From: a virus
Taxonomy: Duplodnaviria > Caudoviricetes
IMG/VR virus record: IMGVR_UViG_3300033070_001454
Span: 2,074 to 66,073 of that record
Direction: 5' to 3' (one strand)
Length of the DNA stretch: 64,000 nucleotides
Below, piece after piece: positions 9,245 to 60,353 of this stretch. Each line of letters starts with the position of its first letter. Position 1 is the first letter of the stretch. Both the position numbers and the translations under genes were made by a program. The notes under the pieces were generated by a model. The model saw only the letters and a list, made by a program, of their open reading frames with translations. It searched no databases and was not told the origin of the DNA.

Positions 9245-9254
9245 GAACACTCTG

Positions 9255-35011: not shown

Positions 35012-35019
35012 TAGATTTG
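35012..35019 (+). promoter_or_regulatory. Bacteroidota-type -7 element (TAGATTTG)
   Basis: 8 nt before the topoisomerase ATG at 35028. Confidence 0.65.
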
Positions 35020-35027
35020 CTGCCCCA

Positions 35028-37147: not shown

Positions 37148-37551
37148 AGACACAGGATCTAGCAGCAGGAATGAGAGTCAGCACCAGATCGAATCTTCTC
37201 AGGGCCAATTCCAGTCTGGCCGGCTATTACAAGTACCATGGTGGTAGCCCAGAACGAGTAGATTACAACTACCGGGAGACTCCATACAAAAGGATCACGC
37301 CCGAGAGCCTGAGGTTGATGCGCCATGCGTATGATCGCTTGGAGCAATTCACCCGCATGCCGAAATCGTTCACTGTGCTACATCGGAATGCTAATTCGGT
37401 GGCCATCATCACTGATGAACCGCTCTACTATGGAGCTGTGCCGGTTGATGTCAACGGAACAGCGTTGGCCAGCGTCGAAACCGAGATCAGGACCCTCACG
37501 ATACCATTCAACATAAACAGCAGCGTCGAGTGGGACCTCGTGTCCGACTAA
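37144..37551 (+). CDS. Hypothetical protein
   Basis: ATGA overlap; fills the gap to the gp52 promoter. Confidence 0.55.
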   Translation: MKTQDLAAGMRVSTRSNLLRANSSLAGYYKYHGGSPERVDYNYRETPYKRITPESLRLMRHAYDRLEQFTRMPKSFTVLHRNANSVAIITDEPLYYGAVPVDVNGTALASVETEIRTLTIPFNINSSVEWDLVSD

Positions 37552-37556
37552 AGTGT

Positions 37557-37564
37557 TATGTTTG
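37557..37564 (+). promoter_or_regulatory. Bacteroidota-type -7 element (TATGTTTG followed by CA)
   Basis: 10 nt before gp52 ATG 37575. Confidence 0.7.
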
Positions 37565-37574
37565 CACCATCCAC

Positions 37575-46729: not shown

Positions 46730-47434
46730 GTGACGAAGAAGAAAAGTGAGAAGGCGATTGAGCACGTCCAATTGGGCCCGCTCGATGGAATCAGAGTGGA
46801 ACTCAAGTACAAGAACAAACCACAGCGCGAGTTCGCTGACCTGATCAGAGACAAGGAGATCACGATCTGCAGCGGATCACCAGGCACAGGCAAGACCATA
46901 GTCTCCTGCTTCGAGGCCCTGAAACTCCTCAAGACACAGCCAGACGTGTACAAGGAGATCGTCATCGTCAAGTCGGTGACCCAGCTCCAGGGTGAGGACC
47001 TAGGTTACCTCAAAGGAACGTTGGCTGAGAAGATGGAGCCTTTCATTTTCTCCTTCATCCACAACTTCGAGAAGATCGTCGGCAGGGATGCAGTGAGAAG
47101 GCTCAGGGACCTTGGGATGATCAGGACGATGCCGATCGCCATGATGCGAGGAATCAACCTCGACAACTGCGTGGTGTTGGTAGATGAGGTCCAGAACATC
47201 ACGATCCAGAACGCGCACACCATCCTCACTAGGATCGGTTACAACTGCAAGATGATCCTGCTCGGCGACGAACAGCAATCAGACATCAGGAACAAGAAGG
47301 ATTCGTCCCTCTCCATCCTGAAGTCCATCTTCGCCAGCGATTCCGAGATCGGGACCATCCACTTCGGAGACGATTGCATCGTCAGGAATCCGCTCATCGC
47401 GAAGATCGAGGAGAGGTTCCGAGAGCTAGCATAA
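46730..47434 (+). CDS. phoH: PhoH-like ATPase
   Basis: GSPGTGKT, MRGINLDN...DEVQN, TRIG...LLGD..QSD, VRNPLI. Confidence 0.93.
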   Translation: MTKKKSEKAIEHVQLGPLDGIRVELKYKNKPQREFADLIRDKEITICSGSPGTGKTIVSCFEALKLLKTQPDVYKEIVIVKSVTQLQGEDLGYLKGTLAEKMEPFIFSFIHNFEKIVGRDAVRRLRDLGMIRTMPIAMMRGINLDNCVVLVDEVQNITIQNAHTILTRIGYNCKMILLGDEQQSDIRNKKDSSLSILKSIFASDSEIGTIHFGDDCIVRNPLIAKIEERFRELA

Positions 47435-47441
47435 GAGTTTG

Positions 47442-47999
47442 ATGAAGGTCTTCGTGACGAGTGATCTCCTCTTCGGTCGCCAGAAGGCAGCTGAGGACCG
47501 TGGGTTCGGCACCGCGGATGAGATGGAAAAGGTGCTGATCGATCGGTGGAACTCCTCGGTCGGCGTCAATGATCTGGTGTACCACCTTGGCAACTTCTCA
47601 TGGGATCCGATCTCAGCGGAAACCGCCCTGCCATACCTCAATGGGAAGATAGTGTTCGGATCTGGAATGTATGATCGCCACATGGCCGACATCTCACAGG
47701 TCCTACTGGGCAAGCACTCCATCCTCAAGCACTCGATCAATGTCCTGAGGGACATCCCGATCTCGAAGAAGAAGAAGTTCGACGTTGTGATGTCATATTG
47801 GCCTCTGATCGATTGGCCAGGCAAGGAGAACGGGATCATGCACATCCATGGAGGATCGATCGCTTCGAACCTCGAGGATGGCCACCGGTTCAGCGCGTCA
47901 TGTGACCGTTGGGATCTCAAGCCAGTAGAGATCGAGCTGCTGTTCGACGTAGCCAAGGATCACTCGGCTGGCAAGGACAAAGTTTTGGACAAGCACTGA
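47442..47999 (+). CDS. Calcineurin-like phosphoesterase fold protein with degenerate metal ligands
   Basis: VTSDLLFG, LIDRWNSSV..NDLVYHLGNF, LNGK...GMYD, HIHGG. Confidence 0.75.
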   Translation: MKVFVTSDLLFGRQKAAEDRGFGTADEMEKVLIDRWNSSVGVNDLVYHLGNFSWDPISAETALPYLNGKIVFGSGMYDRHMADISQVLLGKHSILKHSINVLRDIPISKKKKFDVVMSYWPLIDWPGKENGIMHIHGGSIASNLEDGHRFSASCDRWDLKPVEIELLFDVAKDHSAGKDKVLDKH

Positions 48000-48057
48000 G
48001 CCGTTCACGGTTTCGGTTATTTTAGGGAAGCAACAAACCAAATTTACAGACAAGCGC

Positions 48058-48759
48058 ATGAGTGAGGTGAAAGACATCAGGGAACTTGGGCTGGAGTTCA
48101 AGGAGACCAGGAGCGAGCGAGCATTCGTGAAACTATACAATCGAATTGCACCGGGCTTAGAATTGTACCTCATGAAGATCATGCGTGACAAGGATCTGGC
48201 CGGGTACATGCTCACGAAGACGATGGGCAAAGTCTACCAGAGCATCGATCAGTACAAGCCGGAATACCAGATCTCGACTTGGATCTACCGTATCGCGTTC
48301 ATCAATGCGTGCTTTGAGCTACGCGCGATGAAGAAGAAGAAGATCAATTACATGAGCGACTTCGATTCGGAGAACAAGAATCAACTCTCCAAACTCGAAT
48401 ACGAGCAAGCAGTGGAGAACATGGAAGTCGACGATACGCTGTTGGAAAGGCACACAACTGATGAGATCGCCGACGCAGTCCAACTGCTACCAGAGTATGA
48501 GCTCAAGTTGGTGATGGATCGGTTCTACGAGGGCATGGACTTCAGGACGCTTGCTGTCAAGCATGGCATGGATGTCTCTAGCGCCAAGAAGGCGGTCAAC
48601 AAGGCCAAGAAACTGCTCAAGGGCATCATCAGGGCTGAGCGCAACCGATTGAACGAGTTGACCGGTCAAGAGACACAGGAATTCGATGTTGTCTCTGACG
48701 ACAGGGACGACCAAGAAGTGGAGATCGACGCGGACGAGGTCGAATGTGAGTTGGCCTGA
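48058..48759 (+). CDS. ECF/sigma70-family RNA polymerase sigma factor
   Basis: AFVKLY, region 2 Y.PEYQISTWIYRIA.N, region 4 HTH RFYEGM....LA...G.......KAVNKAKK.L. Confidence 0.82.
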   Translation: MSEVKDIRELGLEFKETRSERAFVKLYNRIAPGLELYLMKIMRDKDLAGYMLTKTMGKVYQSIDQYKPEYQISTWIYRIAFINACFELRAMKKKKINYMSDFDSENKNQLSKLEYEQAVENMEVDDTLLERHTTDEIADAVQLLPEYELKLVMDRFYEGMDFRTLAVKHGMDVSSAKKAVNKAKKLLKGIIRAERNRLNELTGQETQEFDVVSDDRDDQEVEIDADEVECELA

Positions 48760-48781
48760 TCCGGCAGCATAGAAACTTTCC

Positions 48782-49321
48782 ATGAGAGAAAGAGACATCG
48801 AGAAGATCGAGATGCCAGAGGTCGTAGCCAGGATTCCATGGTACGATTTCTGGTCGACTCCAATCGGAATAGTAGAGGAGCTCAGGTACTGGTGGATCTG
48901 GAGGAAGGAAGTCATCAAGGACGCCAACGAGAAGGTGTTCATGGCTCACGATCCGCAGGTGAGGATCGATTGGCTAGGTAGGCTGTACACAGTGGTCAAC
49001 CTGCCAGAGGAACTCTATCCGGAGGAGAATGCTGCCATGCGAAGGCCTTTCGTGCTGGATTACCTCAGCCACCTGGATCACCTCTTGATGAAGATGAGGT
49101 TGAACGATCTGGTCTATCCAGAGATCAGGGAAATACCCAACCGGTTCTCATACCTCATCATCCTATCGCCTTTCAAAGGCGAGTTCCTCAACTTCGGCCG
49201 CATCGTGATGTGGTTCATCAAGGCCGCCGCATTTGTCGCTATTTGGTCATTGGCCGATCGGATGTTCATCCGTTTCTCTGGCTTCGGCATAGTGGACAAC
49301 ATCAAATCACTGTTTGCATGA
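48782..49321 (+). CDS. Hypothetical protein with a C-terminal membrane segment
   Basis: Hydrophobic IVMWFIKAAAFVAIWSLA. Confidence 0.65.
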   Translation: MRERDIEKIEMPEVVARIPWYDFWSTPIGIVEELRYWWIWRKEVIKDANEKVFMAHDPQVRIDWLGRLYTVVNLPEELYPEENAAMRRPFVLDYLSHLDHLLMKMRLNDLVYPEIREIPNRFSYLIILSPFKGEFLNFGRIVMWFIKAAAFVAIWSLADRMFIRFSGFGIVDNIKSLFA

Positions 49322-50055
49322 GGACTATCACTGGTAGCGACGGGACTGGCAGGTTCTACATCGTCGATGAGGCCAAGAAGCTAGCGTTGCCATCGGTGAC
49401 AACTGTGCTCGGCAAGATGTCAGAGAAACAGGGCCTCGAGGAGTGGAAAAAACGGATAGGCGAGAAGAAAGCAGCCGAGGTCTCGAGGTTCTCGGCTAAC
49501 CGCGGCACTTTCATGCACCTCATGCATGAGAAGACGTTGGACCTGCGCTTCAACAAGGGCATGACCGAGGGAGTCATCAAAGAAGCGTACGCCGAGGCCC
49601 TCAACGAGACCAAGGACATGACGAAGGAGGAGCAGGAGTGCGGTCGTCGCCTCTTCTTCAACTTCTATGGGACTGACTTCTACTCTCGGATCAACCGGAT
49701 CGTGATGCAGGAGAGCCCAGTCTGGTCGATGCTGGGCGGCGGTTACGCTGGCAGGTTGGATCTCCTGGTCGAGGATGACCTTAGCCAGATCAAGCTCGTG
49801 GACTTCAAGAGCTCGAGGAAACCCAAGAAAAGGGAGTGGATCAGGAACTATGAGATGCAAGCCGCTGCCTACTCGGTCGCTTGCAACGAGCAGTTCGGTT
49901 TCTTCCCAAAACGGGCCGAGATCTGGATCTCGTGTGAGACAGGCGACATGCAGGAATTCGTGATGACGAGGTCGGAGCTCATGGAAGCGTTCAAGGAATT
50001 CCACTCGCTCGTCAAGGGGTTCCATGCCAAATTCAAGGCTCCAGAGGTAAGATGA
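49318..50055 (+). CDS. PD-(D/E)XK exonuclease (T4-like phage family)
   Basis: LPSVTTVL, RGTFMH, YAGRLDL, VDFKSS.K.K, Y.MQ..AY. Confidence 0.85.
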   Translation: MRTITGSDGTGRFYIVDEAKKLALPSVTTVLGKMSEKQGLEEWKKRIGEKKAAEVSRFSANRGTFMHLMHEKTLDLRFNKGMTEGVIKEAYAEALNETKDMTKEEQECGRRLFFNFYGTDFYSRINRIVMQESPVWSMLGGGYAGRLDLLVEDDLSQIKLVDFKSSRKPKKREWIRNYEMQAAAYSVACNEQFGFFPKRAEIWISCETGDMQEFVMTRSELMEAFKEFHSLVKGFHAKFKAPEVR

Positions 50056-50729
50056 AAGTGATCAAGGCCAGTGAGGTGCCATTGCCTCCGCGCATACCAA
50101 AGATCATCCACCAGGTGTGGATAGGCCCTAAGAAGATGCCGAGGAGGCTGATCGATTCATGGATCGCGCTCAACCCATCGTGGGAGCATAGGCTCTGGAC
50201 GGAGAGCGAGCTCGTAGGGTTTGGCCTGAAGAACCAACGCCAGTTCGACGAGATAGAGGAGTGGGCGGGCAAGGCCGATGTCCTACGGTATGAGCTGTTG
50301 CACAGGTTCGGCGGTTTCTTCTGTGACGCAGATTCGCTCTGCATCAAGCCTCTCGACGATTTCCTCATCGAGCGCGACTCGTTCGCCGTGTTCGAGAACG
50401 AGCAGGTGAGGGCTGGCCTGGTCGCAAACGGCTACATTGGGGCCACCAAGGGCAACGCACTGATGAGGCAACTCATCGATGGAATCTCGATCAAAGAGGT
50501 GTCACAGGCGAAGACCGGGAAGATGGCATGGCAGAACGTTGGCCCGGTCTACTTCACCGAGACCATCTCAAGGACCAAGCATCCGATCAGCATCTATCCG
50601 TCCTGGCTATTCATACCCGAGCACTATAGCGGAGTGGTGCATAATGGACCAGGAGAGCCGTACTGCAAGCAGTTTTGGGGCTCCACCCACGAACTCAGCG
50701 ACCCAGAGTACTACAACAAAATGCAATGA
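50052..50729 (+). CDS. Glycosyltransferase, GT32/DXD (OCH1-like) family
   Basis: IPKIIHQVW, ADVLRYELLHRFGGFFCDAD, GPVYFT. Confidence 0.88.
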   Translation: MKVIKASEVPLPPRIPKIIHQVWIGPKKMPRRLIDSWIALNPSWEHRLWTESELVGFGLKNQRQFDEIEEWAGKADVLRYELLHRFGGFFCDADSLCIKPLDDFLIERDSFAVFENEQVRAGLVANGYIGATKGNALMRQLIDGISIKEVSQAKTGKMAWQNVGPVYFTETISRTKHPISIYPSWLFIPEHYSGVVHNGPGEPYCKQFWGSTHELSDPEYYNKMQ

Positions 50730-50730
50730 C

Positions 50731-50988
50731 ATGCCAGCAGATTTCATGGTGAGGCTCCAAACCGAAAAACAGGAGCTCGAAGAAAGGGTAGATAAGCTCG
50801 AAGGATTCATGTTGAGCCCTGAGTTCGGAAAGCTCAGTCTCGCTAATCGTCTGCTCCTAGAGACCCAATTCCGGGCAATGGGCGAATACCTGACGATCCT
50901 ATACATCAGAACTGACCTGATCAAGGCTGAGAGTTTCGTAGCCTCACATAAGAAGGCATCCAAGCCCAAGATCAAGCGAAAGAAATGA
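50731..50988 (+). CDS. Small coiled-coil phage protein (crAss001_48-like pattern)
   Basis: RLQTEKQELEERVDKL..F...LL..Q..AM.EY..IL..R. Confidence 0.6.
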   Translation: MPADFMVRLQTEKQELEERVDKLEGFMLSPEFGKLSLANRLLLETQFRAMGEYLTILYIRTDLIKAESFVASHKKASKPKIKRKK

Positions 50989-51698
50989 GCGTCTCGTTCC
51001 TCATCCCAGTGTTCCGGGTCGAGCTCGACTGGTTCAAGCAAGCGATGTCATCCGTCTTCAGGGAGCTCGATCAGACGAAGGCTCCTGGCTACGAGGTGGT
51101 CATAGTCAACGATGGCACGGAGCAACAGGACCTGATCGAATACCTGGCTGAGCTCGAGAAAGATGATCGGGTAGTAGTGGTCGATTCTGGAAAGAATCTC
51201 GGCGTCGCTGGGGCCCTGAACCTTGGGATCGAGCACTGTAAGAACGGGTTGATCGCTAGGATGGATGCCGACGACATCATCCTTCCTGGCCGATTGAAGA
51301 AACAGATTCACTACATGAACATGAACCGGGAAGTTGCGGCTCTTTCCACTGGCCTCAACTACCTCATGTTCTACGGCGGCCAATGGGGTGTGGCTGAACC
51401 GCCGGTGATACACCCACCGACCATCACCAAGGAGATCGCCAAGTCCTCGTTCTGGTTCATGAACCATCCCACTGTCATGTTCAGGAAGAACATGCTCCTG
51501 GACGCTGGCATGTACGACGATTCACTCAAGGGCTTCTCAGAGGACTATGAGCTCTGGATCAGGATGCTCAGGCTTGGCATGAGGCTCGACAACCTACAGG
51601 AATCGACTCTGCTGCTGCGCATCAACCCTAACAGCGCGACGAAGAGCTTCAACCAAGCGAACCAGGAATTCCTGGCCAAAACACAGGCTTCCCTATGA
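50985..51698 (+). CDS. Glycosyltransferase, GT2 family
   Basis: SFLIPV, EVVIVNDG, NLGVAGALNLG, IARMDADD, HPTVMFRK, EDYELWIR. Confidence 0.92.
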   Translation: MSVSFLIPVFRVELDWFKQAMSSVFRELDQTKAPGYEVVIVNDGTEQQDLIEYLAELEKDDRVVVVDSGKNLGVAGALNLGIEHCKNGLIARMDADDIILPGRLKKQIHYMNMNREVAALSTGLNYLMFYGGQWGVAEPPVIHPPTITKEIAKSSFWFMNHPTVMFRKNMLLDAGMYDDSLKGFSEDYELWIRMLRLGMRLDNLQESTLLLRINPNSATKSFNQANQEFLAKTQASL

Positions 51699-52510
51699 GG
51701 CATTTCGACTTAGCAGATTCCTGCTTCGCGCACTGCAACTACAGCAACAATCCGTTACAGGAGGCAAGGGAGCTCAGGTGGAACAGGGATCTAGCTAACC
51801 CAGCTTCGAAGACGATCTTCATCACCGACCGCACGATCCCACACTTCGCTGGACTGCAGGGAAGGTTCAAGGTCGCTTGGTTGCTGGAGCCTCGCGAGCT
51901 CAATCCAGCGCTGTACGATTGGGTCATCGCTAACCACGGGATGTTTGATGTCGTCATGTCCCATGATGTCGATGCGATGTCCCACCTTCCGAATTTCCTG
52001 TGGGTCCCTTTCGGCGGATGCTGGATTCCAGAATCGAATTGGGGCTATCCCGGAGATAGGACTGGGGTCTCGATCGTCGCATCTGAAAAGCGACAGACCA
52101 TAGGCCACTGCCTGATGCACACTGTCATAGCAGAGAACAGCGGGCTTGAGGTGATGGGCCGAGGATACAAACCCATCAATTCGAAGCTCGAATCGATGAA
52201 GACTGGCTTCCAAGTGGTCATTGAGAATTCGAGCCGCAACGGGTATTTCACAGAGAAGCTGATAGACTGCCTCATCACTGGCACAGTTCCCATCTACTAT
52301 GGGTGCCCTAACCTCGAGGATTATGGCTTCAACATGGGTGGCATCCTGCACTGCTCCGACAAGGAAGCCATCAACGCTTCGATATCGCTGGCGCTGATTT
52401 CTGACCCAGTCCTCCTTGCGATCGAAATTGCCGACAACATAAGAGTAGCTCAGCGCTACATCCTAGCCGAGAACTACATCTACGACAAGTACAACAATCT
52501 ACTCCCATGA
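51695..52510 (+). CDS. GT10-like (alpha-1,3/4-fucosyltransferase family) glycosyltransferase
   Basis: C-terminal FQVVIENS...YFTEKL.DC..TGTVPIYYG motif. Confidence 0.75.
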   Translation: MRHFDLADSCFAHCNYSNNPLQEARELRWNRDLANPASKTIFITDRTIPHFAGLQGRFKVAWLLEPRELNPALYDWVIANHGMFDVVMSHDVDAMSHLPNFLWVPFGGCWIPESNWGYPGDRTGVSIVASEKRQTIGHCLMHTVIAENSGLEVMGRGYKPINSKLESMKTGFQVVIENSSRNGYFTEKLIDCLITGTVPIYYGCPNLEDYGFNMGGILHCSDKEAINASISLALISDPVLLAIEIADNIRVAQRYILAENYIYDKYNNLLP

Positions 52511-53115
52511 TACCACAGTTCAACCAGTTCTTCGCGGAGAACGGTGAAGCCAAGAGGACCGATTACCCTGAGCTCGGACCAGACTCGATCGTCTTCGACG
52601 TCGGAGCCTTCAAGGGAGAATTCGCGGATCGGATCCACAACAAGTACGGATCTCTCGTCTACTGCTTCGAGGTAGCTCCAGAGTTCATCGTCGGTCTCAA
52701 CAATAAGTACAAGGACCACGAGAAAGTTTGGGTGTACCAACACGGACTCGGCGACAAGACCGCGAACTTCAACATCAGGCACGCACAGAACGCGACCTCC
52801 ATCTTCGGACAGGAACAGAACAAGAAGGGCGAGGCCGAGGTGATCGCCATGTCGGAATTCATGGCCAAGGAGATGAAGGACGACCAAATGATCGACCTCA
52901 TCAAGATCAACATCGAAGGCCCAGAGTACGACCTTGTGGACCACATGATCGACACTGGGATCGTCAAACGGTTCAGGAACATCCAAGTCCAATTCCACAA
53001 TTTCGTTCCAGACGCCGAAGCAAGGCTGACGTCGATCAGAGAGAAACTGAAGGAGACGCACGATCAGGTGTGGAACTATGATTTCGTATGGGAATCATGG
53101 AGGCTAAAAAGCTGA
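52507..53115 (+). CDS. FkbM-family methyltransferase
   Basis: VFDVGAFKGE, YCFE, GLGD, DLIKINIEG.EYD, IQVQFH. Confidence 0.85.
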   Translation: MIPQFNQFFAENGEAKRTDYPELGPDSIVFDVGAFKGEFADRIHNKYGSLVYCFEVAPEFIVGLNNKYKDHEKVWVYQHGLGDKTANFNIRHAQNATSIFGQEQNKKGEAEVIAMSEFMAKEMKDDQMIDLIKINIEGPEYDLVDHMIDTGIVKRFRNIQVQFHNFVPDAEARLTSIREKLKETHDQVWNYDFVWESWRLKS

Positions 53116-53336
53116 CCGGCGGTTGCACCTGGAACCAGAACGGTGTCAGGTGTGGGCTAGATGCGACCCATGATTGCGTGGCCAAGACTGGCGAGGTGTG
53201 GGCCAGGCTCTGCGATGAGCATAACAACATGCTCTCCGAATCACTGAAGGACCCATCAAACATGCGGAAGATGCTGTCCAATTGGGTCAGTGCTGGAGGC
53301 GGGCCAGCGATCATGTCGAAAAGAACTAACAGATGA
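53088..53336 (+). CDS. Small Cys/His-containing hypothetical protein
   Basis: C..C..H.C...C..H pattern; overlap-coupled. Confidence 0.5.
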   Translation: MGIMEAKKLTGGCTWNQNGVRCGLDATHDCVAKTGEVWARLCDEHNNMLSESLKDPSNMRKMLSNWVSAGGGPAIMSKRTNR

Positions 53337-54250
53337 TGGAACGAACGCTCGTTACCGGAGGTTCCGGGTTGGTGGGATCCCACCTCAGAAAGCTGATGCC
53401 GACCGCGGCTTTCGTGTCGAGCCGTGACTACAACCTCATGGACCAGTTCGACGTCGATCGCCTCATGATGCGAGGCTGGGATCGGGTAATCCACATGTCG
53501 GCAAGGGTTGGTGGGATAGTGGACAACCAATCGAACCAATTGGCCTATCTGGAGGAGAACATCCTCATGAACACCTACTTCCTGAGAAAGGCCAGGGAGC
53601 TTAGGATTCCAAGGCTCACTGGGATCCTCTCGTCGTGCATCTGTCCCACGAATTGGAACCGATATCCGATGATCGAGGAGGATCTCCTCATGGGCGAGCC
53701 CAATGAGTCGAACTACACCTATGCGATGGCCAAAAGGATCATGGCGAGGCAGATCGAACTGTCCAACCAATCTGGCCAAGACATCAAATGGAATTACTTG
53801 GTCCCATGCAACCTGTACGGTGAGGGAGACAAGTCAGACCCATCGAAGAGCCACTTCGTGACCGCCTTGCTCCATAAGATCAAGGATGCGGTCGCGCTAG
53901 GGAAGGACCACATCGAACTCCTGGGCGAAGGTTATGAGCAGAGGCAATTCATGCACGCCGGAGACCTGGCAAGGGTGATCAAGGAGGTCTGTGATCGTGA
54001 CATCCATGTCTCTTTCAACGTCGCTCCACCCGAGAACCTGACCATCCACAACATTGCGGATGTGGCATTGGAAGCTACCGGCAACACCCACCTTGGGATT
54101 CGGTTCCAAGGAGGATACGGAGGCGAGGTGAGGAAAGACATCAGCAACAAGAGGATGATGGCCCTGATCCCAGATTTCAAGTTCACAAGCCTGCGAGATG
54201 GGATGCGCTCAGTGTACTCCTCCATCGATCAAAAACCAGTCGAAGCATGA
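53333..54250 (+). CDS. fcl: GDP-L-fucose/GDP-L-colitose synthase (Fcl/ColC family epimerase-reductase)
   Basis: TGGSGLVG, ARVGGI, SSC, YAMAK (YxxxK), PCNLYG.GD, SHFV.AL, RQFMHA.DLA. Confidence 0.9.
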   Translation: MMERTLVTGGSGLVGSHLRKLMPTAAFVSSRDYNLMDQFDVDRLMMRGWDRVIHMSARVGGIVDNQSNQLAYLEENILMNTYFLRKARELRIPRLTGILSSCICPTNWNRYPMIEEDLLMGEPNESNYTYAMAKRIMARQIELSNQSGQDIKWNYLVPCNLYGEGDKSDPSKSHFVTALLHKIKDAVALGKDHIELLGEGYEQRQFMHAGDLARVIKEVCDRDIHVSFNVAPPENLTIHNIADVALEATGNTHLGIRFQGGYGGEVRKDISNKRMMALIPDFKFTSLRDGMRSVYSSIDQKPVEA

Positions 54251-55074
54251 TCACTGCAAGGCTAATGGGCGGGTTAGGCAACAACCTGTTCCAGATAGCG
54301 AACCTGATGGCTCGGTCGAAGGAGAGCGGGTACGTCGCTAAGGTGCTCCCTCACGTCGAAAGGTACCACTATGGGAAGCTCAATGGCTCAGTGGTCCTCG
54401 AAGTAGAAGACATCTTCGAGGACACCTCCTACATGACCAACGACCTGTCGAAGGAGAGGTTCGTCTACTATGGCCACCCTGACATGGGCGGTTATTTCGG
54501 CTACACGAAGCCTCCTGTGTTCGATGGGATACTCTACGATGGGTATTTTCAATCGCACAGGTATTTCGAATCGATAGACCACCGATCACTGTTCGCTATC
54601 AAGGGTTCTCTACAACAGCGTGTCAGGTCAGAGCACCGCCTCCAAAGGAACAGCGTCGCTGTCCATTGCCGGTTCGCCGGCGATCGGCTTAAGCCTGAGA
54701 CCCTGCCATACCATGGGGTGGTCTCGATGGGATTCTATAAGCAGGCGTTGGAACGGATCCAAGACATCCTCGAGGAGACGCTCAGTGTCTATGTCGTGAC
54801 CGACGATCCAGACGCTGGCAAGGTGGAGCGCATGTTCGCTGACATCTGTCCCACCGCTGAGATCTCTGTGGTGAACGGAGACATGCAATCGTCATTCGCC
54901 CTGATGGCGATGTGCTCACACAGTGTCCTTGGCAACTCGACGTACTCCTGGTGGGCGGCAATGATCAACCCTAACAACCCGATCGTGGTCGCCCCGAACA
55001 CTGAGTGGTTCGGTCCGTTGAACTCCCATATCCATAAGGGAGACCTATTCCCATCCGATTGGATACTGATCTGA
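54247..55074 (+). CDS. GT11 (alpha-1,2-fucosyl/colitosyltransferase family) glycosyltransferase
   Basis: GGLGNNLFQ, GYFQS..YF, VAVHCR..GD, C.H.VLGNSTYSWWAA. Confidence 0.88.
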   Translation: MITARLMGGLGNNLFQIANLMARSKESGYVAKVLPHVERYHYGKLNGSVVLEVEDIFEDTSYMTNDLSKERFVYYGHPDMGGYFGYTKPPVFDGILYDGYFQSHRYFESIDHRSLFAIKGSLQQRVRSEHRLQRNSVAVHCRFAGDRLKPETLPYHGVVSMGFYKQALERIQDILEETLSVYVVTDDPDAGKVERMFADICPTAEISVVNGDMQSSFALMAMCSHSVLGNSTYSWWAAMINPNNPIVVAPNTEWFGPLNSHIHKGDLFPSDWILI

Positions 55075-55105
55075 TCGTCGGACCCAAGCTGGGCATACGA
55101 TCGAC

Positions 55106-56329
55106 ATGTCTGAACCGAGAGTCGCACTGACCGTCGAGACCATCTCCAAGCAGGAGATCGATTCGCTGAGGGATTGGCTTGGCACCTACCCGAGGCTGAC
55201 GAAGGGCCAGGTCACGTTGGATTTCGAGAAGAAATGGTCCCAAACGGTTGGGATGCGCCACTCGACTTTCGTGAACTCCGGAAGCTCAGCGATCCTGCTA
55301 GTCCTATCGGCGATGATAGCCATGGGCAAGATCGACGTAGACGATGCGATCGTAGTTCCAGCCCTGAGTTGGCTGACCGATGTCTCGAGCCCAATGAACT
55401 TGGGCCTGAGGCCCATCCTTTGTGACGCTAACCGAGAGGACCTTTCATTGGACCTCGATAAGTTCGAACAGATAGTCGTGAAGGAGAGCCCAAAGGTGGC
55501 CATCGTGGTCTCTGTTCTGGGACTCAGCCCGAACATGGAGAGGCTCAAGCGCATCTGTGACCGGTATGGGGTCCTTTTGATCGAGGACGTGTGCGAGTCT
55601 CTTGGCACCGACTTCGATGGCGAGTGGCTGGGCACGTTCGGTTACGCTTCACTGTACTCGCTCTACTACGGGCACCACATATCCACCATCGAAGGCGGCA
55701 TGGTCTGCACCGACGATGCCGAGCTAGATGCCGTGGTGAGATCGATGCGATCGCATGGTTGGAACAGGGATTGGAGCCCAGAACGGGCCAAGAGGATGGA
55801 CGAGAAATGGCAGATCGACCCATTCCAATCCAAGTACACCTTCTTCTATCCGGGTTACAACCTCAGGGCAACCGACTTACAAGCCTTCATCGGGCTCAAA
55901 CAGGTCGATCGGATAGGAGAGATCTCAGAGAAGAGGCACGACAACTTCATCCTCTACGAGAGCCTGTTGGGCGACATCAACACCGGGATAGACCTGAGCG
56001 CAGCCATCAGACGCTCTAACCGGATCTCGAACTTCGCGTATCCTATCGTCTTCCACGACTCAAAGGAACGATCCTTCGCTGCCACGCTTCTCGATTACGC
56101 CGGGATAGAATCCAGGCCTCTCATCGCTGGATCAATGGCGAACCAGCCTTTCATGAAAAGGGCCCATGCCATCCAAGATTTCTCGAGCCCGTACTCCTTG
56201 GCAATGGCAAACTACGTCCACACATGTGGCATGTACCTTCCTAACAACCACACGATGGGCAAAGAGGAAATCGAATTCGTGGCAAGCGTGCTGGATCCGA
56301 TCCGGCAATCGCGCAAGAGGAACGCATAA
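55106..56329 (+). CDS. colD: ColD-type GDP-4-keto-6-deoxymannose 3-dehydratase (DegT/DnrJ family with His at the PLP-lysine position)
   Basis: FVNSGSSA, IEDVCESLG, SLYYGHHISTIEGG, RSHGW, GYNLR. Confidence 0.8.
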   Translation: MSEPRVALTVETISKQEIDSLRDWLGTYPRLTKGQVTLDFEKKWSQTVGMRHSTFVNSGSSAILLVLSAMIAMGKIDVDDAIVVPALSWLTDVSSPMNLGLRPILCDANREDLSLDLDKFEQIVVKESPKVAIVVSVLGLSPNMERLKRICDRYGVLLIEDVCESLGTDFDGEWLGTFGYASLYSLYYGHHISTIEGGMVCTDDAELDAVVRSMRSHGWNRDWSPERAKRMDEKWQIDPFQSKYTFFYPGYNLRATDLQAFIGLKQVDRIGEISEKRHDNFILYESLLGDINTGIDLSAAIRRSNRISNFAYPIVFHDSKERSFAATLLDYAGIESRPLIAGSMANQPFMKRAHAIQDFSSPYSLAMANYVHTCGMYLPNNHTMGKEEIEFVASVLDPIRQSRKRNA

Positions 56330-56355: not shown

Positions 56356-56940
56356 ATGTCAGAGACAAAGACCAAGAAGGTGAAAGCGGCCGACGTGCCA
56401 GCGGCCCAAGTAGTGCCAGTTTCTGGCGCAAACATCCAAGCGCCGACCGGCCAACGGACAGTCGATGCGGCCAAGGTCGCCGAGCTGGAAGTCAAATGGG
56501 ACCAGATCAGCGATAAGCTCAGCAAAAGCATCTACGTCGCGACGATGAGCAGGGAGCTAGCGTTGCACTTCAGGGACGTGGTGGTCGAAAGCTTCTCGTG
56601 GAAAGGCCCACAGTGCTTGATCGTCGAGAAGATCTTCGAGAAACTCGACGCTTGCATCGATGGCCAAACGACGCCCGAGATCTCCATCGACTTCGACCAC
56701 GATCTGCTCGAGGTGCTGACGGTCCTGATCAACAGCTACGTTTCGCACGGGAAGACGAACACGATCTCGTTCAGCAAGATCACCGAAATCCTGTCGGTGC
56801 CGGTTCAGGAACTGCAGAACAACCGCAAGGCTCTCCGTGAGGTCTCGATGGAACTCGAGGCTGCAAGGCAGGGCATGTCCCTCGAGGACTTCATCCTCAA
56901 GATGCAGGAAGCGCAACGCCAACAGTCCCAACACCAATGA
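56356..56940 (+). CDS. Hypothetical helical protein
   Basis: 194-aa ORF after an A-rich leader. Confidence 0.65.
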   Translation: MSETKTKKVKAADVPAAQVVPVSGANIQAPTGQRTVDAAKVAELEVKWDQISDKLSKSIYVATMSRELALHFRDVVVESFSWKGPQCLIVEKIFEKLDACIDGQTTPEISIDFDHDLLEVLTVLINSYVSHGKTNTISFSKITEILSVPVQELQNNRKALREVSMELEAARQGMSLEDFILKMQEAQRQQSQHQ

Positions 56941-57254
56941 ACCCAACATTGCAACCGAAGCTGACGATGGGTGGATTGGCGCTTGTGCTCGTCCTCTGCC
57001 TGATGCAGACCTGCAACTCCTGCAGCACATCCACTCAGCTCTCGAAGATGACCAAGAGGATCGATGCCCTCGATTCCACTACATCGACCAAGGCATCTGT
57101 CTCCGAGACCGAAAAGATCATCAAGCTCGAAGGGCTTCGGATCTCGAAGCGCAACCTCTACGATCAGAACGCGATTGTCAGGACAGCCATCAGGCCAGAC
57201 GATCGGATGAACGAGTACGACGCTGAGATCGATTCGATCCAACGGAATAGATAA
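56937..57254 (+). CDS. Membrane-anchored coiled-coil protein (possible spanin-like lysis protein)
   Basis: N-terminal hydrophobic helix with Cys residues, then a coiled coil; function inferred only. Confidence 0.5.
   Translation: MNPTLQPKLTMGGLALVLVLCLMQTCNSCSTSTQLSKMTKRIDALDSTTSTKASVSETEKIIKLEGLRISKRNLYDQNAIVRTAIRPDDRMNEYDAEIDSIQRNR
57246..57253 (+). promoter_or_regulatory. Putative late promoter (AATAGATA)
   Basis: Overlaps the end of the upstream ORF; no ORF follows before the terminator. Confidence 0.5.
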
Positions 57255-57396: not shown

Positions 57397-58248
57397 CTAT
57401 TTCTTGGCCGATCGAGTCCGCATTTGTTTGGCTCGAAGAGATCGAAGCTTACTGAGGACTCCTTGTTCAAGTTTAGGTTCTGTTGGATGGAGCTTGACAA
57501 TCTGATGACAGATCCAAATGAATGAGCTCAGATCAAGATCCCATTTGATCTGGTTGATGAATTTGTGGACCCACTGGACATTGTCTTTAGTGTAACCCTT
57601 GTTCGAGTCGATTCTGTCGATAGAAGCAGTTGATTTGCCTTTGGAGAATCCTCCACAGCTATCTGAGACCGAGATCGTAAGTCCTGAGATAGCACATTTG
57701 CTCTGTTGTTGCTCGAAGAGTTCTCGCATGAACTTTTCATCGATGTCAAATTCCCTTTTGTGTTTCTTGGCTCTGGCCCAAGCCCCATCGATGTGCTTGT
57801 GAAATGCATCCTTCTTCCGTGGATCAATCCGGCATGATTTGCAACCACCTTTGACGATGATAGCAAAATCTCGGCCACTGAACAGCTTCTCGAATCCACA
57901 TTCACATCGAGTTCTCCATTTCAATCTTCTGGTACCGTTATCGAATCGAAGAAATTCACGGCCAACCACTTCCCATTTGCCAAATTTCTGGCCTGTGAGA
58001 TCAGGAGCATTCTTGTGCAACTGATCATCGGGCAATTTCTTGCTACAGGATCGGCATGTTTGTCCGCTATGGTTTCCAAACACGGCGCCACAGCTATCCC
58101 ATTTCTCTTTACCGCATTTACAGCGATACAAAGCCTTACGCTTCGTGACTCTGACCTCGACTACTGTCCAGGTTCCATAGACTTGTCCTACCATAGGAAC
58201 TTTGACTCGTCTATTCGTCTTAGGGTTGAGAATGTGTTGGTGATTCAT
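57397..58248 (-). CDS. HNH-type homing endonuclease with duplicated N-terminal Cys-containing DNA-binding modules
   Basis: Two G-Q-x-F/Y-G-x-W-x-V...C-x-CG...C-x-x-C modules; C-terminal CAISG...SIDRIDSNKGYTKDNVQWV..IN..K; start placed at ATG 58248. Confidence 0.8.
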   Translation of the reverse strand: MNHQHILNPKTNRRVKVPMVGQVYGTWTVVEVRVTKRKALYRCKCGKEKWDSCGAVFGNHSGQTCRSCSKKLPDDQLHKNAPDLTGQKFGKWEVVGREFLRFDNGTRRLKWRTRCECGFEKLFSGRDFAIIVKGGCKSCRIDPRKKDAFHKHIDGAWARAKKHKREFDIDEKFMRELFEQQQSKCAISGLTISVSDSCGGFSKGKSTASIDRIDSNKGYTKDNVQWVHKFINQIKWDLDLSSFIWICHQIVKLHPTEPKLEQGVLSKLRSLRAKQMRTRSAKK

Positions 58249-58253
58249 CATGC

Positions 58254-58260
58254 TATATAT
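58254..58260 (-). promoter_or_regulatory. Putative late promoter (ATATATA, minus strand)
   Basis: ATANATA 5 nt before ATG 58248. Confidence 0.55.
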
Positions 58261-58311
58261 GCGATAGAATCTGTTAAACTTCAAACAGCAAGAAGGCTTC
58301 GATCCGATTAC

Positions 58312-58319
58312 TATACATA
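58312..58319 (+). promoter_or_regulatory. Putative late promoter (TATACATA)
   Basis: 18 nt before ATG 58338. Confidence 0.65.
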
Positions 58320-58337
58320 GCCAAACAGCAACTACCA

Positions 58338-59240
58338 ATGCCACATCCAAAGCTTTTCTTAGAGGGAGTTTGCGTCTGTGTAAACTACGGCGACTTCCTC
58401 GCGGAGACCCTCTCGGCGAATAAGACCCAGTTTAACCGGCTGGTAGTCGTGACGGACACCAATGACAAATGGACCAAGACGGTGTGCGAGTACCACCATG
58501 TCAAGTGCGTGCAGACGGATGTCTTCTACGAGAACGGCGACACGTTCAACAAGGGAAAGGGGATCAACGAGGGCCTGAAGCACCTCACGAACGAGGGATG
58601 GGTAGTCCAGCTCGACGCGGACATCTACCTTCCTCCAATGACCAGGGCAATCCTTGAGAAGATCGAACTCGATCCACAGACCATCTACTCGATGGACAGG
58701 CTTATGTGTCCAAGTTACCCTGAGTGGAGGCGTTACATGAGCAAACCAAAGCCAATCCATGAGGCCCACATCTACGTACACCCCGAAATCGGTGGATCTA
58801 AGCCGTGGCCGATCGGCGTCAGGATAGCCGAGTACATGAACAAGGGGTATGAGCCTATCGGTTACTTCCAAATGTGGAACCCTTTGCACTCTGGAGTCCA
58901 CCAATACCCAATCGAACACGGCAAGGCCGATAGGACGGATGTCATTCACGCCAAGAAGTTCTCCAGGATCAAACGACAGCTCCTGCCTGAATTGATCTGC
59001 ATCCACCTCGATTCGGAAGGCCTGAAGACCAACCAGATGGGTAAGAACTGGAACGGACGAAAGACTCTGCCATTCACAATCGATTATCTGATGGGCACCC
59101 AAGGTTACGGTCCATCTTGCTGGGTCCTCTTCTGGATGTACATTTGCGGCTGGTTCAGTCACCTCTGGTGGAGGCTCTTCGGTTGGACTGGCCTGGTAGA
59201 ACGCCCAGAGCCGCACCAGCCTGATCCGGAGCAGTGCTGA
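58338..59240 (+). CDS. GT-A-fold (GT2-like) glycosyltransferase with a Trp-rich C-terminal tail
   Basis: VCVNYGDFL, VVVTD..D, FNKGKGIN.GL, QLDADI (DxD). Confidence 0.75.
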   Translation: MPHPKLFLEGVCVCVNYGDFLAETLSANKTQFNRLVVVTDTNDKWTKTVCEYHHVKCVQTDVFYENGDTFNKGKGINEGLKHLTNEGWVVQLDADIYLPPMTRAILEKIELDPQTIYSMDRLMCPSYPEWRRYMSKPKPIHEAHIYVHPEIGGSKPWPIGVRIAEYMNKGYEPIGYFQMWNPLHSGVHQYPIEHGKADRTDVIHAKKFSRIKRQLLPELICIHLDSEGLKTNQMGKNWNGRKTLPFTIDYLMGTQGYGPSCWVLFWMYICGWFSHLWWRLFGWTGLVERPEPHQPDPEQC

Positions 59241-59261
59241 TCCTTGCGCATAAGATGCGCG

Positions 59262-60353
59262 ATGATCACATTCAACAACGTCCAAGCCAATAACAACGGG
59301 ATCGCTGGAATCTCTATTGGTGGAAATCTGTCTCCGCAACCCACATCTACTATCGATAGCCAATACTGTCGGTTATTGATGACCATCATGAATGAGGGCC
59401 GCCAGAAGGGAGACCGAACTGGCACCGGCACAGTGGCCACTTTCGGCCACATGCTCAAGGTGAACGCCGATCCAGATAAGTTCCCTATCCTGTTGGGCAA
59501 GAAGATGTTCTTCAGGGGCATTGTGGAGGAACTGCTCTGGTTCATCAGCGGTGGCACCAACATCAGGCCTCTCGTCCAGAAGGGCATCCACATCTGGGAC
59601 GGCGACGCCTACAAGAAGTATGTCAAAGACACATCCGGGTATAACTTTCAATCCGATCTGGTTGGGCTCTCCATGGAGCAATTCGTCGAGAAGATCAGGG
59701 ACGATGAGGCGTTCGCGAACCGGTTCGGCGACCTCGGTCCAGTCTACGGCAAACAGTGGCGGGATTGGGAGGACACAGACGCCCATGGGACCGGCCACTT
59801 CGACCAGTTCAGCGATGCTATCGAGACCCTGAGGAAGAACCCAGACTCGAGGCGTATCATCGTGAACTCATGGAACCCGGCCCTCATCGCTGAGATGACG
59901 CTGCCGCCGTGCCACTACTCCTACCAGTTCCAGACCGAGGAACTCACCGAGATGGAGAGGCGAGCGATCTGGGAGGCCAAGCTGACGGAGCGCAAGGAGA
60001 TGCCGAGCGATTGGCCGACTCGGAGACTCAACCTCGCGATGAGCCAACGGTCTGCCGACACGTTCCTTGGGGTACCGTTCAACATCACCTCGTACGCGTT
60101 GCTCCTCAACCTGGTGGCCCGCGAGGTGAACATGGTCCCTGGCGAGCTCACCATCTTCTTCGGCGACCTGCACCTCTACAACAACCACCTTGAGCTGGCG
60201 AAGGAGTTCCTTTCACGTGACACTTCGTCGCTCCGGTATCCCAAGCTCAAGATCAAGCCAGGCTCTGGAATCTTCGATCTCCGATCTGAGGACATCAAAC
60301 TCGAGGGCTATGACGCCCTACCAAACTGGAAGGATGTCCCACTCTCGAACTGA
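59262..60353 (+). CDS. thyA: Thymidylate synthase
   Basis: DRTGTGT, ELLWFISG, IW, LGPVYG.QWR, SRRII, PPCH, QRSAD.FLGVPFN, GDLHLY.NH. Confidence 0.96.
   Translation: MITFNNVQANNNGIAGISIGGNLSPQPTSTIDSQYCRLLMTIMNEGRQKGDRTGTGTVATFGHMLKVNADPDKFPILLGKKMFFRGIVEELLWFISGGTNIRPLVQKGIHIWDGDAYKKYVKDTSGYNFQSDLVGLSMEQFVEKIRDDEAFANRFGDLGPVYGKQWRDWEDTDAHGTGHFDQFSDAIETLRKNPDSRRIIVNSWNPALIAEMTLPPCHYSYQFQTEELTEMERRAIWEAKLTERKEMPSDWPTRRLNLAMSQRSADTFLGVPFNITSYALLLNLVAREVNMVPGELTIFFGDLHLYNNHLELAKEFLSRDTSSLRYPKLKIKPGSGIFDLRSEDIKLEGYDALPNWKDVPLSN

Follow-up and report, generated by a model that had tools for sequence, protein, structure and literature searches.

The colitose cluster of Escherichia coli O55:H7 encodes Gmd, ColD (WbdK), ColC (WbdJ) and the GT11 enzyme WbgN, a proven colitosyltransferase that also accepts GDP-fucose and has glycolipids as substrates (PMC11987014). 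The genes for ColC and ColD overlap in this cluster. In phages, clusters for GDP-fucose and fucosyltransferases have been published: the T4-like cyanophage S-SCSM1 carries GMD, GDP-fucose synthase and several fucosyltransferases, which were described as genes for modifying the cell wall, and such cyanophage clusters have been read as GDP-fucose pathways (PMC9602691). The cultured Synechococcus phage ACG-2014f (NC_026927) harbours Gmd, an Fcl-like enzyme, a GHH-type DegT enzyme, GT11, a methyltransferase and further glycosyltransferases in one co-oriented run; the annotation of the cyanophage His-type enzyme is generic, just "aminotransferase". The literature search turned up no paper in which a phage colitose pathway is named.

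The locus analysed here lies in a stretch of 64,000 nucleotides (the window) of a 66-kb IMG/VR virus record. Judged from sequence, the gene run most likely serves to make colitose, a rare 3,6-dideoxy sugar, out of a precursor derived from GDP-mannose, and to transfer it to a small glycan. It shares with E. coli O55:H7 a His-type PLP/PMP-dependent 3-dehydratase without Fe-S cysteines, an adjoining Fcl-family epimerase-reductase and, within a single cluster, a GT11 transferase together with GT2-type transferases for the backbone. It differs from it by the low identity of its proteins (merely 24-29%), by the lack of gmd, manB, manC, wzx and wzy in the window, by the addition of GT10-like, GT32-type and FkbM methyltransferase genes, and by its phage carrier. 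Compared with the T4-like cyanophages, Gmd is missing in cis, and host and phage lineage (jumbo, wastewater) are different; the dehydratase is 33% identical to that of ACG-2014f and belongs to a different viral clade.

Organisation of the gene run

The following features were assigned, all on the plus strand:

50052-50729, +, GT32-type (DXD, GT-A) glycosyltransferase, 225 aa (PF04488 36 bits, cut-off 23; PF05704 25.6 bits)
50731-50988 (most likely extent), +, crAss001_48-domain protein of unknown function, 84 aa, between GT32 and GT2 (PF21825 E 3e-14; PHROG 774)
50985-51698, +, GT2 glycosyltransferase, 237 aa (PF00535 73.6 bits; EpsE and TuaG models matched weakly)
51695-52510, +, GT10-like (alpha1,3/4-fucosyltransferase-type) deoxyhexosyltransferase, 271 aa (PF00852 22.2 bits, just below the cut-off of 23.9)
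52507-53115, +, FkbM-family SAM methyltransferase, 202 aa (TIGR01444 48.5 bits, cut-off 37.7; PF05050 34 bits)
53088-53336, +, ORF of unknown function filling the FkbM-Fcl gap, 82 aa (without family match)
53333-54250, +, putative Fcl/ColC-type GDP-4-keto-(3,)6-deoxyhexose epimerase/4-reductase, 305 aa (PF01370 106 bits; human GDP-fucose synthase 8e-31)
54247-55074, +, GT11 (alpha1,2-fucosyl/colitosyl-transferase family), 275 aa (PF01531 58.9 bits, cut-off 23.9; PHROG 2644 4e-32)
55106-56329, +, putative ColD-type PLP/PMP-dependent GDP-4-keto-6-deoxyhexose 3-dehydratase of the DegT family, 407 aa (PF01041 200 bits)
55673-55675, +, CAC codon of His190, predicted catalytic His replacing the Schiff-base Lys (alignment to ColD)
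58338-59240, +, second, divergent GT2-like enzyme, 300 aa, 2 kb downstream (PF00535 28.9 bits, cut-off 23.3)

ORFs and families thus agree with the original prediction of a one-strand, mostly overlap-coupled run (50052-56329) of four glycosyltransferases, a methyltransferase, an Fcl/ColC-type and a DegT enzyme; the 84-aa and 82-aa ORFs come in addition to its list. Most junctions are overlaps of 4 nt. From the upstream exonuclease gene, whose stop is overlapped by the start of the GT32 gene, to the GT11 gene the junctions measure -4, +1, -4, -4, -4, -28, -4 and -4 nt. The start of the 84-aa ORF was placed at the ATG at 50731, 1 nt past the GT32 stop, the PF21825 match covering residues 88-146 of the longer 50479-50988 frame. 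For the 82-aa ORF, family searches, PHROG and Atlas gave nothing usable, and no homolog was found among the fetched viral loci. The surroundings consist of replication and regulation genes (PhoH, a sigma-like factor, the exonuclease, ThyA), outside the structural block. The score of the GT10-like protein is complemented by a profile of 17 homologs, which matches the H. pylori alpha1,3-fucosyltransferase 2nzw at 7e-17 and of which every member (17/17) finds PF00852.

The DegT-family enzyme

Peptide YYGHHISTIEGG of the DegT-family enzyme begins at residue 187, so that residue 190 is His. As predicted earlier, this His occupies the position of the PLP lysine: it aligns with His188, the catalytic residue of E. 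coli ColD, a position marked by the mutant structures 3b8x and 3gr9. In the same column, His is present in 162 of 179 aligned homologs and Lys in the other 17 (separate paralogs and ArnB). Among solved structures, E. coli ColD (2gms, 8.8e-49) is the closest, at an identity of only 29%, and on partial sequence the E1 and ColD scores are near each other.

E1 (RfbH/DdhC/AscC; CDP-6-deoxy-L-threo-D-glycero-4-hexulose 3-dehydrase) also has the DegT fold, His for Lys and C3 deoxygenation, and differs by a Cys-rich [2Fe-2S] motif and the requirement for the E3 reductase. The Cys-rich Fe-S motif is a feature of E1/SpnQ and not of ColD (PMC8987622), and it was looked for in the window enzyme and not found. 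On the RfbH model NF011936 (cut-off 423) true RfbH/E1 orthologs reach 670-736 bits, versus 201 for the window enzyme and about 200 for its clade. The phylogenetic tree has the Lys-type enzymes as outgroup and E1 as a single clade (SH-aLRT 93), while the ColD side (SH-aLRT 97) contains E. coli ColD, the ACG-2014f enzyme and the window enzyme. Among the alignment columns that the clade of the latter conserves, 19 are common to ColD only and 9 to E1 only. An identity as E1 was rejected on the missing motif, the score below cut-off and the position outside the E1 clade. The tree separates ColD from E1 and places the window enzyme with ColD, at a distance from the Lys-type aminotransferases; this supports the earlier reading of a His-type ColD-like 3-dehydratase and not an aminotransferase.

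The partner reductase and the probable sugar product

The pairing of the DegT enzyme with an Fcl/ColC-type epimerase-reductase was equally borne out. S100, C102, Y130, K134 and H174 of the Fcl-like protein align with S107, C109, Y136, K140 and H179 of E. coli Fcl; all five catalytic residues are retained, i.e. the Ser/Tyr/Lys triad and the Cys/His epimerisation pair. The protein scores 132 bits on NF047922, well below the 500-bit NCBIfam cut-off for Fcl. These data support an Fcl/ColC-type epimerase-reductase, ColC and Fcl not being separable from sequence. GT11 shows 24% identity to WbgN of E. coli O55 (E 1e-15). The original description of GT10 and GT11 as fucosyl/colitosyl-transferase families was right, WbgN being a colitosyltransferase of family GT11.

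A rather improbable alternative is that the cassette mainly yields GDP-L-fucose or another GDP-deoxyhexose for fucosylation, with the His-type enzyme acting on another substrate such as GDP-6-deoxy-4-keto-heptose, as in Campylobacter jejuni; the capping sugar would then not be colitose. Over part of its length, the Fcl-like enzyme indeed resembles Fcl (32%) slightly more than E. coli O55 ColC (27%), GT10 and GT11 are primarily fucosyltransferase families, the published cyanophage clusters were interpreted as GDP-fucose pathways, and the heptose is also a substrate of ColD-family enzymes (PMC10440746). However, a pure fucose pathway has no use for a conserved His-type 3-dehydratase which is coupled to Gmd in most relatives.

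Related modules and the source of Gmd

Hundreds of phage contigs contain the cassette, and its underlying chemistry is already known from bacteria. At least 585 IMG/VR stretches encode a relative of the dehydratase. Among 80 viral loci, 62 have Gmd no more than 10 kb from the dehydratase, and over the same distance 60 have an Fcl-like enzyme, 47 a GT10-like enzyme and 43 GT11; FkbM homologs occurred in 8 of the 80.

Two uncultured jumbo phages, G002 (IMG/VR 3300013005_000022) and G005 (3300009158_000031), whose TerL is 58-59% identical, carry the module at the equivalent syntenic position, with the o179-exonuclease upstream and o212-o174 downstream. They share the head-to-tail set of GT32, GT2, GT11, GT10, Fcl and ColD; the gene order differs from that of the window, GT11 having moved. 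GT11 is merely 26-27% identical to theirs, compared with 37-59% for the remaining genes (GT32, 57-59%; GT2, 37-38%). FkbM, the crAss001_48-domain ORF and the 82-aa ORF belong to the window's module only, and no counterpart of the crAss001_48-domain ORF was found in the relatives' modules (loci L003 and L007). G005 has FkbM and Gmd in a second island, together with a carbamoyltransferase and a GT25 enzyme. The window itself is a fragment of a very large (jumbo) wastewater phage.

The reported lack of Gmd in the window was extended to the whole 66-kb record, which represents about 24% of the genome (CheckV estimate). Gmd (TIGR01472, 312-511 bits; the CDP-glucose dehydratase model gives these ORFs no more than 106 bits) was detected in 35 of 45 viral records with a dehydratase relative, usually adjoining it or a few kb away. 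In G005 it is located 70 kb from the module, which makes plausible that part of the original prediction which placed Gmd elsewhere in the genome. Gmd would most likely be encoded in the three quarters of the phage genome that lie outside the record; alternatively, the host would supply it.

Proposed pathway and acceptor

The explanation as a whole, to which we give a probability of about 0.5, is a phage cassette for GDP-colitose synthesis, transfer by the GT11 and GT10-like enzymes, and a host lipid-linked envelope glycan as acceptor. What was observed is gene content, motifs, phylogenetic placement, synteny and co-occurrence, from which we infer chemistry and acceptor. By homology and context, the His190 enzyme would strip the 3-OH in the manner of ColD via PMP, without Fe-S cluster or partner reductase, its cofactor being regenerated from glutamate. 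The Fcl/ColC-like enzyme would then perform C5 epimerisation and C4 reduction to GDP-L-colitose, probably with some GDP-L-fucose from substrate escaping ColD. GT2 and the GT32-type enzyme may build a short backbone to which GT11 and the GT10-like enzyme would add 6-deoxy-L-hexoses. The FkbM enzyme probably O-methylates a sugar, and probably the terminal one.

No TM helices were found in the cluster proteins. The 66-kb record was searched for an initiating phosphoglycosyltransferase, a transferase of WecA type, Wzx and Wzy, and contains none of them, in line with what had been noted for the window. Five relatives, of which two are 99-100% complete, were likewise negative for initiating phosphoglycosyltransferase, Wzx and Wzy. 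With soluble enzymes and no such machinery in the record or in near-complete relatives, the likeliest acceptor would be a lipid-linked envelope glycan of the host (LPS, O-unit or capsule intermediate), to which the sugar is added on the cytoplasmic side before host machinery exports it; the acceptor is the weakest part of the explanation. The surface of the infected cell would thereby be altered. At the inner face of the membrane, lipid-linked intermediates of the host are accessible to soluble transferases and, once decorated, can be exported by the host flippase. The earlier conclusion from the missing flippase, polymerase and initiating transferase to a cytoplasmic acceptor therefore does not follow.

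The same sugar pathway could instead serve the phage's own virion proteins, a cytoplasmic self-glycosylation shielding or tuning the particle, for which glycosylated mycobacteriophages and giant viruses are precedents. The solubility of all cluster enzymes, the lack of initiating transferase, flippase and polymerase in cassette phages including 99-100% complete ones, the conservation of the glycosyltransferase set over long divergence in a lytic-looking jumbo phage lineage, and the Thr/Gly-rich insertions in virion proteins claimed in the original prediction are consistent with it. We consider it unlikely, since the cluster is situated amid replication and regulation genes, translationally coupled to the exonuclease gene and outside the structural block, and since bacterial GT10, GT11, GT2 and GT32 enzymes usually act on lipid-linked glycans, as WbgN does on glycolipids.

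DNA had also been proposed as acceptor. Transfer of the deoxyhexose to phage DNA (hypermodified bases) would fit the missing export machinery and a GT2-like gene immediately 5' of the ThyA-family gene, but is highly improbable. With 291 bits against a cut-off of 108, the ThyA-family protein matches the ThyA equivalog, and it retains the PPCH nucleophile and the FNI-motif Asn fitting dUMP; this neighbour being a canonical thymidylate synthase, nothing supports a DNA target. No hydroxymethylase-type or base-modifying enzymes were seen, and we know of no GT10 or GT11 enzyme acting on DNA.

Additional observations

The second GT2-like enzyme (58338-59240) may be part of the same glycan system. Two unknown ORFs and an HNH endonuclease gene lie between its gene and the cluster, and no homolog was found in the fetched viral loci. 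A further sign of conservation is that the indels in an activated-sludge variant of the region, +9 and +3 nt, keep the reading frame. In wastewater "RNA" libraries the region appears as long contigs of flat depth, which look like carried-over DNA.

Genomic context of the glycan cluster

The 66,073-bp IMG/VR record has a CheckV completeness of 24%, and nearly all long ORFs of the window lie on the plus strand.

Landmark genes of the phage fragment
5739-7391, portal
7415-9244, prohead protease
22413-24260, large terminase
24309-27539, tail sheath
34902-38909, topoisomerase II, split

The nearest relatives of the terminase are found in uncultured huge phages (LR756500, 41%), Tenacibaculum phage PTm1, Sphingomonas phage PAU and Lak phages. 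Together with the structural gene set, this kinship identifies the window as a piece of a jumbo myovirus genome. tRNA genes, which might have given a hint on the host, are absent. The region 46730-49321, ahead of an exonuclease gene, encodes a PhoH-like ATPase, a phosphoesterase (PHROG 547), a sigma-factor-like protein (region 4 / Q-like) and an unknown ORF. The glycan cluster is thus located in a setting of regulation and DNA metabolism, and not in a structural one. Just 5' of the PhoH gene, a 1704-aa ORF (41613-46727), regarded as tape measure protein in the original prediction, had no match to any Pfam or PHROG family.

The phage DNA of this stretch is contained whole in wastewater libraries, with copies that are about identical to the window across the glycan cluster. 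A variant with 95-99% identity was detected in activated sludge, whereas small-share runs from rivers, freshwater and viral metagenomes were left out of the evidence on habitat. Many transitions were observed in this variant within 52234-52519, while the only indels in the cluster are an in-frame insertion of 9 nt at position 51750 (in the GT10-like gene) and one of 3 nt at 52514 (at the FkbM start), so the reading frames are preserved. In wastewater runs of one study declared as metatranscriptomic, the whole stretch was recovered as well. These copies may be carried-over DNA, and they cannot demonstrate transcription of the cluster because the contigs are long, have a flat depth and span many genes.

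Organisation of the gene cluster

The ORFs and protein families of the run between 50052 and 56329 were recovered as originally described.

Genes of the glycan cluster and the gene preceding it
49210-50055, PD-(D/E)XK exonuclease, upstream of the cluster
50052-50729, GT32-type glycosyltransferase (PF04488, 36 bits)
50731-50988 (most likely), crAss001_48-domain protein, 84 aa
50985-51698, GT2 glycosyltransferase (73.6 bits)
51695-52510, GT10-like glycosyltransferase (PF00852, 22.2 bits, below the cut-off of 23.9)
52507-53115, FkbM methyltransferase (TIGR01444, 48.5 bits, cut-off 37.7; PF05050, 34.1 bits, cut-off 22.7)
53088-53336, orphan ORF, 82 aa (orf82)
53333-54250, Fcl-like short-chain dehydrogenase/reductase (SDR)
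54247-55074, GT11 glycosyltransferase (PF01531, 58.9 bits, cut-off 23.9)
55106-56329, DegT-family enzyme (PF01041, 200 bits)

From the exonuclease gene through GT11, the successive junctions measure -4, +1, -4, -4, -4, -28, -4 and -4 nt. A megablast search of the cluster against cultured phages gave no match. Directly behind the DegT-family gene, two orphan ORFs of 194 and 105 aa (56356-57254) are coupled by a 4-nt overlap. The N-terminus of the 105-aa ORF is hydrophobic and contains cysteines (LTMGGLALVLVLCLMQTCN), resembling a signal or lipoprotein leader, and its product may be targeted to the envelope and co-expressed with the cluster. Searching the ESM Atlas with the ORFs 56356-56940 and 53088-53336 returned only neighbours that were unnamed or below threshold.

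A predicted ColD-type dehydratase

The enzyme encoded by 55106-56329 belongs to the DegT/DnrJ/EryC1 fold-type I PLP/PMP family (residues 14-395 on PF01041) and has 49 solved relatives at E <= 1e-10. The best of these are ColD of E. coli, the GDP-4-keto-6-deoxymannose 3-dehydratase (2gms, 8.8e-49), followed by the CDP-sugar 3-dehydrase E1 (3bcx, 7e-44); perosamine synthetase reached only 3e-31. Residues 187-198 read YYGHHISTIEGG, where His190 is encoded by the CAC codon at 55673-55675. G189-H190-H191 align with S187-H188-H189 of ColD, the histidine replacing the Schiff-base lysine. The engineered ColD mutants 3b8x and 3gr9 flag the position aligned with His190, and histidine is invariant in this column throughout an alignment of dehydratase homologs (A1). 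All three known 3-dehydratases (E1, ColD and SpnQ) display His instead of Lys, and a four-cysteine [2Fe-2S] motif is present in E1 and SpnQ but not in ColD (PMC8987622). In the window enzyme, the region aligned to DCYCAPGCDNTC of E1 is free of cysteine and shorter by 4 residues, as in ColD. With the NCBIfam RfbH model, true orthologs from bacterial genomes scored 670-736 bits, against about 200 bits for the window enzyme and its clade.

A maximum-likelihood tree of 64 rows was rooted on the Lys-type enzymes. Its branches are long; an E1 clade (SH-aLRT 93) was recovered, and the Lys-type enzymes fall outside. ColD of E. coli O55, the enzyme of cyanophage ACG-2014f and the window enzyme form a ColD-side clade (SH-aLRT 97), in which the latter sits within a group of nine rows, the others all viral (SH-aLRT 100). 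A conservation of 90% or more within the clade was reached by 82 columns, of which 19 agree with ColD alone, 9 with E1 alone and 37 with both enzymes. The closest database proteins (P0002-P0005) are 55-65% identical to the dehydratase, while the identity to E. coli ColD is only 29%, so that membership is argued from clade and motif and not from close orthology. On this basis, the enzyme is predicted to be a ColD-type dehydratase; its position on the ColD side, apart from true aminotransferases, agrees with the original prediction. Residues R221, N252, R254 and R337 are conserved at the positions of ColD Arg219, Asn248, Arg250 and Arg331, which we take to be contacts of the GDP-sugar, and this conservation may serve as a lead.

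The partner reductase

Residues S100, C102, Y130, K134 and H174 of the enzyme encoded by 53333-54250 correspond to S107, C109, Y136, K140 and H179 of E. coli Fcl, and the same residues occur in ColC. By alignment, the Ser/Tyr/Lys residues would act in the reduction and the Cys/His pair as acid-base pair in the epimerisation, as expected for an extended SDR. The protein scored 132 bits on the GDP-L-fucose synthase equivalog NF047922 and did not reach its cut-off of 500. It is thus best described as a predicted divergent member of the GMER family and not as an Fcl equivalog. Identity to ColC is 27% over the full length (113 bits) and to Fcl 32% over 218 residues (100 bits), values from which the two functions cannot be told apart. 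E. coli O55 has overlapping ColC and ColD genes, with a GT11 gene in the same cluster.

Glycosyltransferases

GT11 aligns over residues 2-273 with positions 33-295 of the 298 in its Pfam profile. WbgN, the GT11 enzyme of E. coli O55, is a proven colitosyltransferase which also accepts GDP-fucose (PMC11987014). The GT10 assignment is weak for the single sequence and was firmed up by a profile of 17 homologs, which matched the alpha1,3-fucosyltransferase of H. pylori (2nzw) at 7e-17 over the donor-binding motif, and by the fact that 17/17 members of the profile match PF00852. In the C-terminal motif ENxxxxxY/FxTEK, residues E177, N178, E187 and K188 are invariant.

The combination of alpha1,2- and alpha1,3/4-type deoxyhexosyltransferases acting on a two-sugar backbone would lead to a Lewis-b/y-like determinant, and such a determinant bearing two colitoses occurs in Vibrio cholerae O139. 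A Lewis-b/y-like product of the GT11 and GT10-like pair is considered here as a lead and not as a result.

Origin of the nucleotide sugar

The absence of Gmd, the enzyme supplying GDP-4-keto-6-deoxymannose, had been noted for the window and holds across the whole 66-kb record (about 24% of the genome). The dehydratase family itself is large, with 5,963 database proteins at E <= 1e-20 and relatives encoded in 375 stretches of bacterial genomes. Scanning viral contigs with the single dehydratase protein gave no match; alignment A1 was substituted as query and retrieved at least 585 IMG/VR stretches encoding relatives with 41-51% identity.

A Gmd ORF was identified in 35 of the 45 viral records with a dehydratase relative (TIGR01472, 312-511 bits), mostly at a distance of a few kb and in some cases immediately adjoining. 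On the CDP-glucose 4,6-dehydratase model, the same ORFs scored at most 106 bits and none passed the cut-off. Within 10 kb of the dehydratase, tblastn analysis of 80 viral loci detected Gmd in 62, Fcl-like enzymes in 60, and homologs of the GT10-like and GT11 proteins of the window in 47 and 43, respectively. The co-occurrence of Gmd and Fcl, and the failure on the CDP model, tie the dehydratase family to the predicted GDP-mannose route. Involvement of the window enzyme in an E1/CDP pathway was considered and rejected on the missing Cys motif, the low RfbH score, the tree and the result obtained on the CDP model with the Gmd of its relatives.

Comparison with related jumbo phages

Two related uncultured jumbo phages of IMG/VR, G002 (160 kb) and G005 (254 kb, 83% complete), encode TerL proteins 58-59% identical to that of the window phage. 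In each of them, GT32-GT2-GT11-GT10-Fcl-ColD are arranged head to tail and occupy the syntenic site, flanked by the ORF o179 (unknown) and the exonuclease upstream and by the ORFs o212 and o174 downstream. Identities to the window proteins reach 57-59% for GT32, 50-51% for ColD, 39-42% for Fcl, 37-40% for GT2 and GT10, and only 26-27% for GT11. The position of GT11 differs between the window and these modules, and FkbM, the crAss001_48-domain ORF and orf82 are additions in the window phage.

In G005, Gmd is located 70 kb off the module in a second glycan island (242014-246781, or 6015-10782 of locus L175) together with an FkbM/RfbT-like methyltransferase, a NodU/CmcH-type carbamoyltransferase, an unknown ORF and a GT25. 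By analogy, the simplest expectation for the window phage would be a Gmd elsewhere, in the unsampled 76% of its genome. From this gene content, the glycan of this phage lineage may include sugars that are O-carbamoylated and methylated. ManC (TIGR01479) was not found in G002 and G005.

The stretch between ColD and o212 (with the ORFs o194 and o105, an HNH gene, a second GT2 gene, ThyA, o181 and o278) has no counterpart at that site in G002 and G005, so the segment from o194 to o278 looks like inserted material. The HNH/Endo VII-type endonuclease gene (57397-58350, minus strand) lies between the glycan cluster and the GT2-ThyA pair, and a second endonuclease, a homing-endonuclease-like ORF, is located downstream (61047-61883, plus strand).

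Possible acceptors of the glycan

As stated in the original prediction, neither an initiating phosphoglycosyltransferase, nor a flippase, nor a polymerase was detected: PF02397 (initiating phosphoglycosyltransferase), PF00953 (WecA-type), PF01943 (Wzx) and PF04932 (Wzy) are absent from the record. Five cassette-bearing phage records, among them some with 100%, 99% and 83% completeness, likewise lack PF02397, PF01943 and PF04932. The genes in the record thus do not make up a complete O-antigen or capsule cluster of the Wzx/Wzy type, as the initiating transferase, the flippase and the polymerase are all missing from it.

The lack of export and initiation genes fits equally well with an acceptor linked to a host lipid and with a cytoplasmic target. 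We lean towards host lipid-linked intermediates, which would be decorated by soluble phage transferases and then exported by the host. Bacterial members of the GT families of the cluster work on lipid-linked glycans, and the genes to which the cluster is coupled serve replication and regulation and do not belong to the structural block; both features argue for such an acceptor. No transmembrane helices were predicted in any cluster protein. Published cyanophage glycan clusters were likewise interpreted as devices of cell-surface modification (PMC9602691). Glycosylation of cytoplasmic targets such as virion proteins is less favoured: it is compatible with the absence of initiation, flippase and polymerase functions, but the cluster is found with replication and regulation genes and away from the structural block. 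It appears improbable, in particular, that the cluster represents a self-contained system of virion glycosylation, widespread but unrecognised in large aquatic and wastewater phages, in which structural proteins would be capped in the cytoplasm with a methylated, colitose-bearing, Lewis-like glycan without lipid carrier or export machinery.

DNA had also been proposed as acceptor. This was considered because a second GT2 gene (58338-59240) abuts a ThyA-family gene (59244-60353), and rejected because the latter encodes a canonical thymidylate synthase; the proposal is left without support. A T4-type base-glycosylation system was discarded on the TIGR03284 score of the ThyA-family protein (291 bits, cut-off 108) and its PPCH and FNI motifs. 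At 369 aa, the thymidylate synthase is of unusual length, with an N-terminal extension of about 35 residues and an insertion of about 28 residues (around 233-260) between the conserved halves, the catalytic motifs being intact.

A recurrent phage cassette

The 3,6-dideoxy sugar colitose is rare and has been found mainly in O-antigens of a small number of pathogens. Gmd, an Fcl-like enzyme, a DegT enzyme of the GHH type, GT11 and a methyltransferase are encoded by the cultured cyanophage ACG-2014f, where their annotations are generic. The window cluster is hence a further member of a recurrent and under-annotated phage cassette, another instance and no new principle; its distinctive features are a Gmd not encoded in cis and an unusually rich set of transferases and methyltransferase. 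Full-text literature searches found no paper naming a phage colitose pathway, while phage clusters for GDP-fucose and fucosyltransferases have been published (PMC9602691). Published labels such as "aminotransferase", "epimerase" and "fucose pathway" understate the predicted products of the cassette. The maintenance of a predicted colitose pathway with matching transferases in a jumbo phage lineage and in hundreds of phage contigs points to a heavy investment in a specific deoxysugar glycan, which could alter the cell surface against superinfection or grazing, or coat the virion.

Additional enzymes were observed in other phages. In many viral loci (L004, L009, L012, L015, L018-L020, L026, L027, L031, L036 and L054), the His-type gene is adjoined by a second DegT paralog with the normal lysine (motif NKTITCGEG) and a clade of its own. 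This paralog looks like an aminotransferase of the GDP-perosamine-synthase type, so some phages may also make an amino sugar from the same Gmd product. The huge phage LR756502.1 (642 kb; locus L163) encodes two His-type dehydratases (437592-438701 and about 445200-446250). One is ColD-like and adjoins an Fcl-like gene. The other has an E1-like Cys-rich motif and clusters with RfbH/E1, a hint that a phage may encode a pathway to a CDP-dideoxyhexose.
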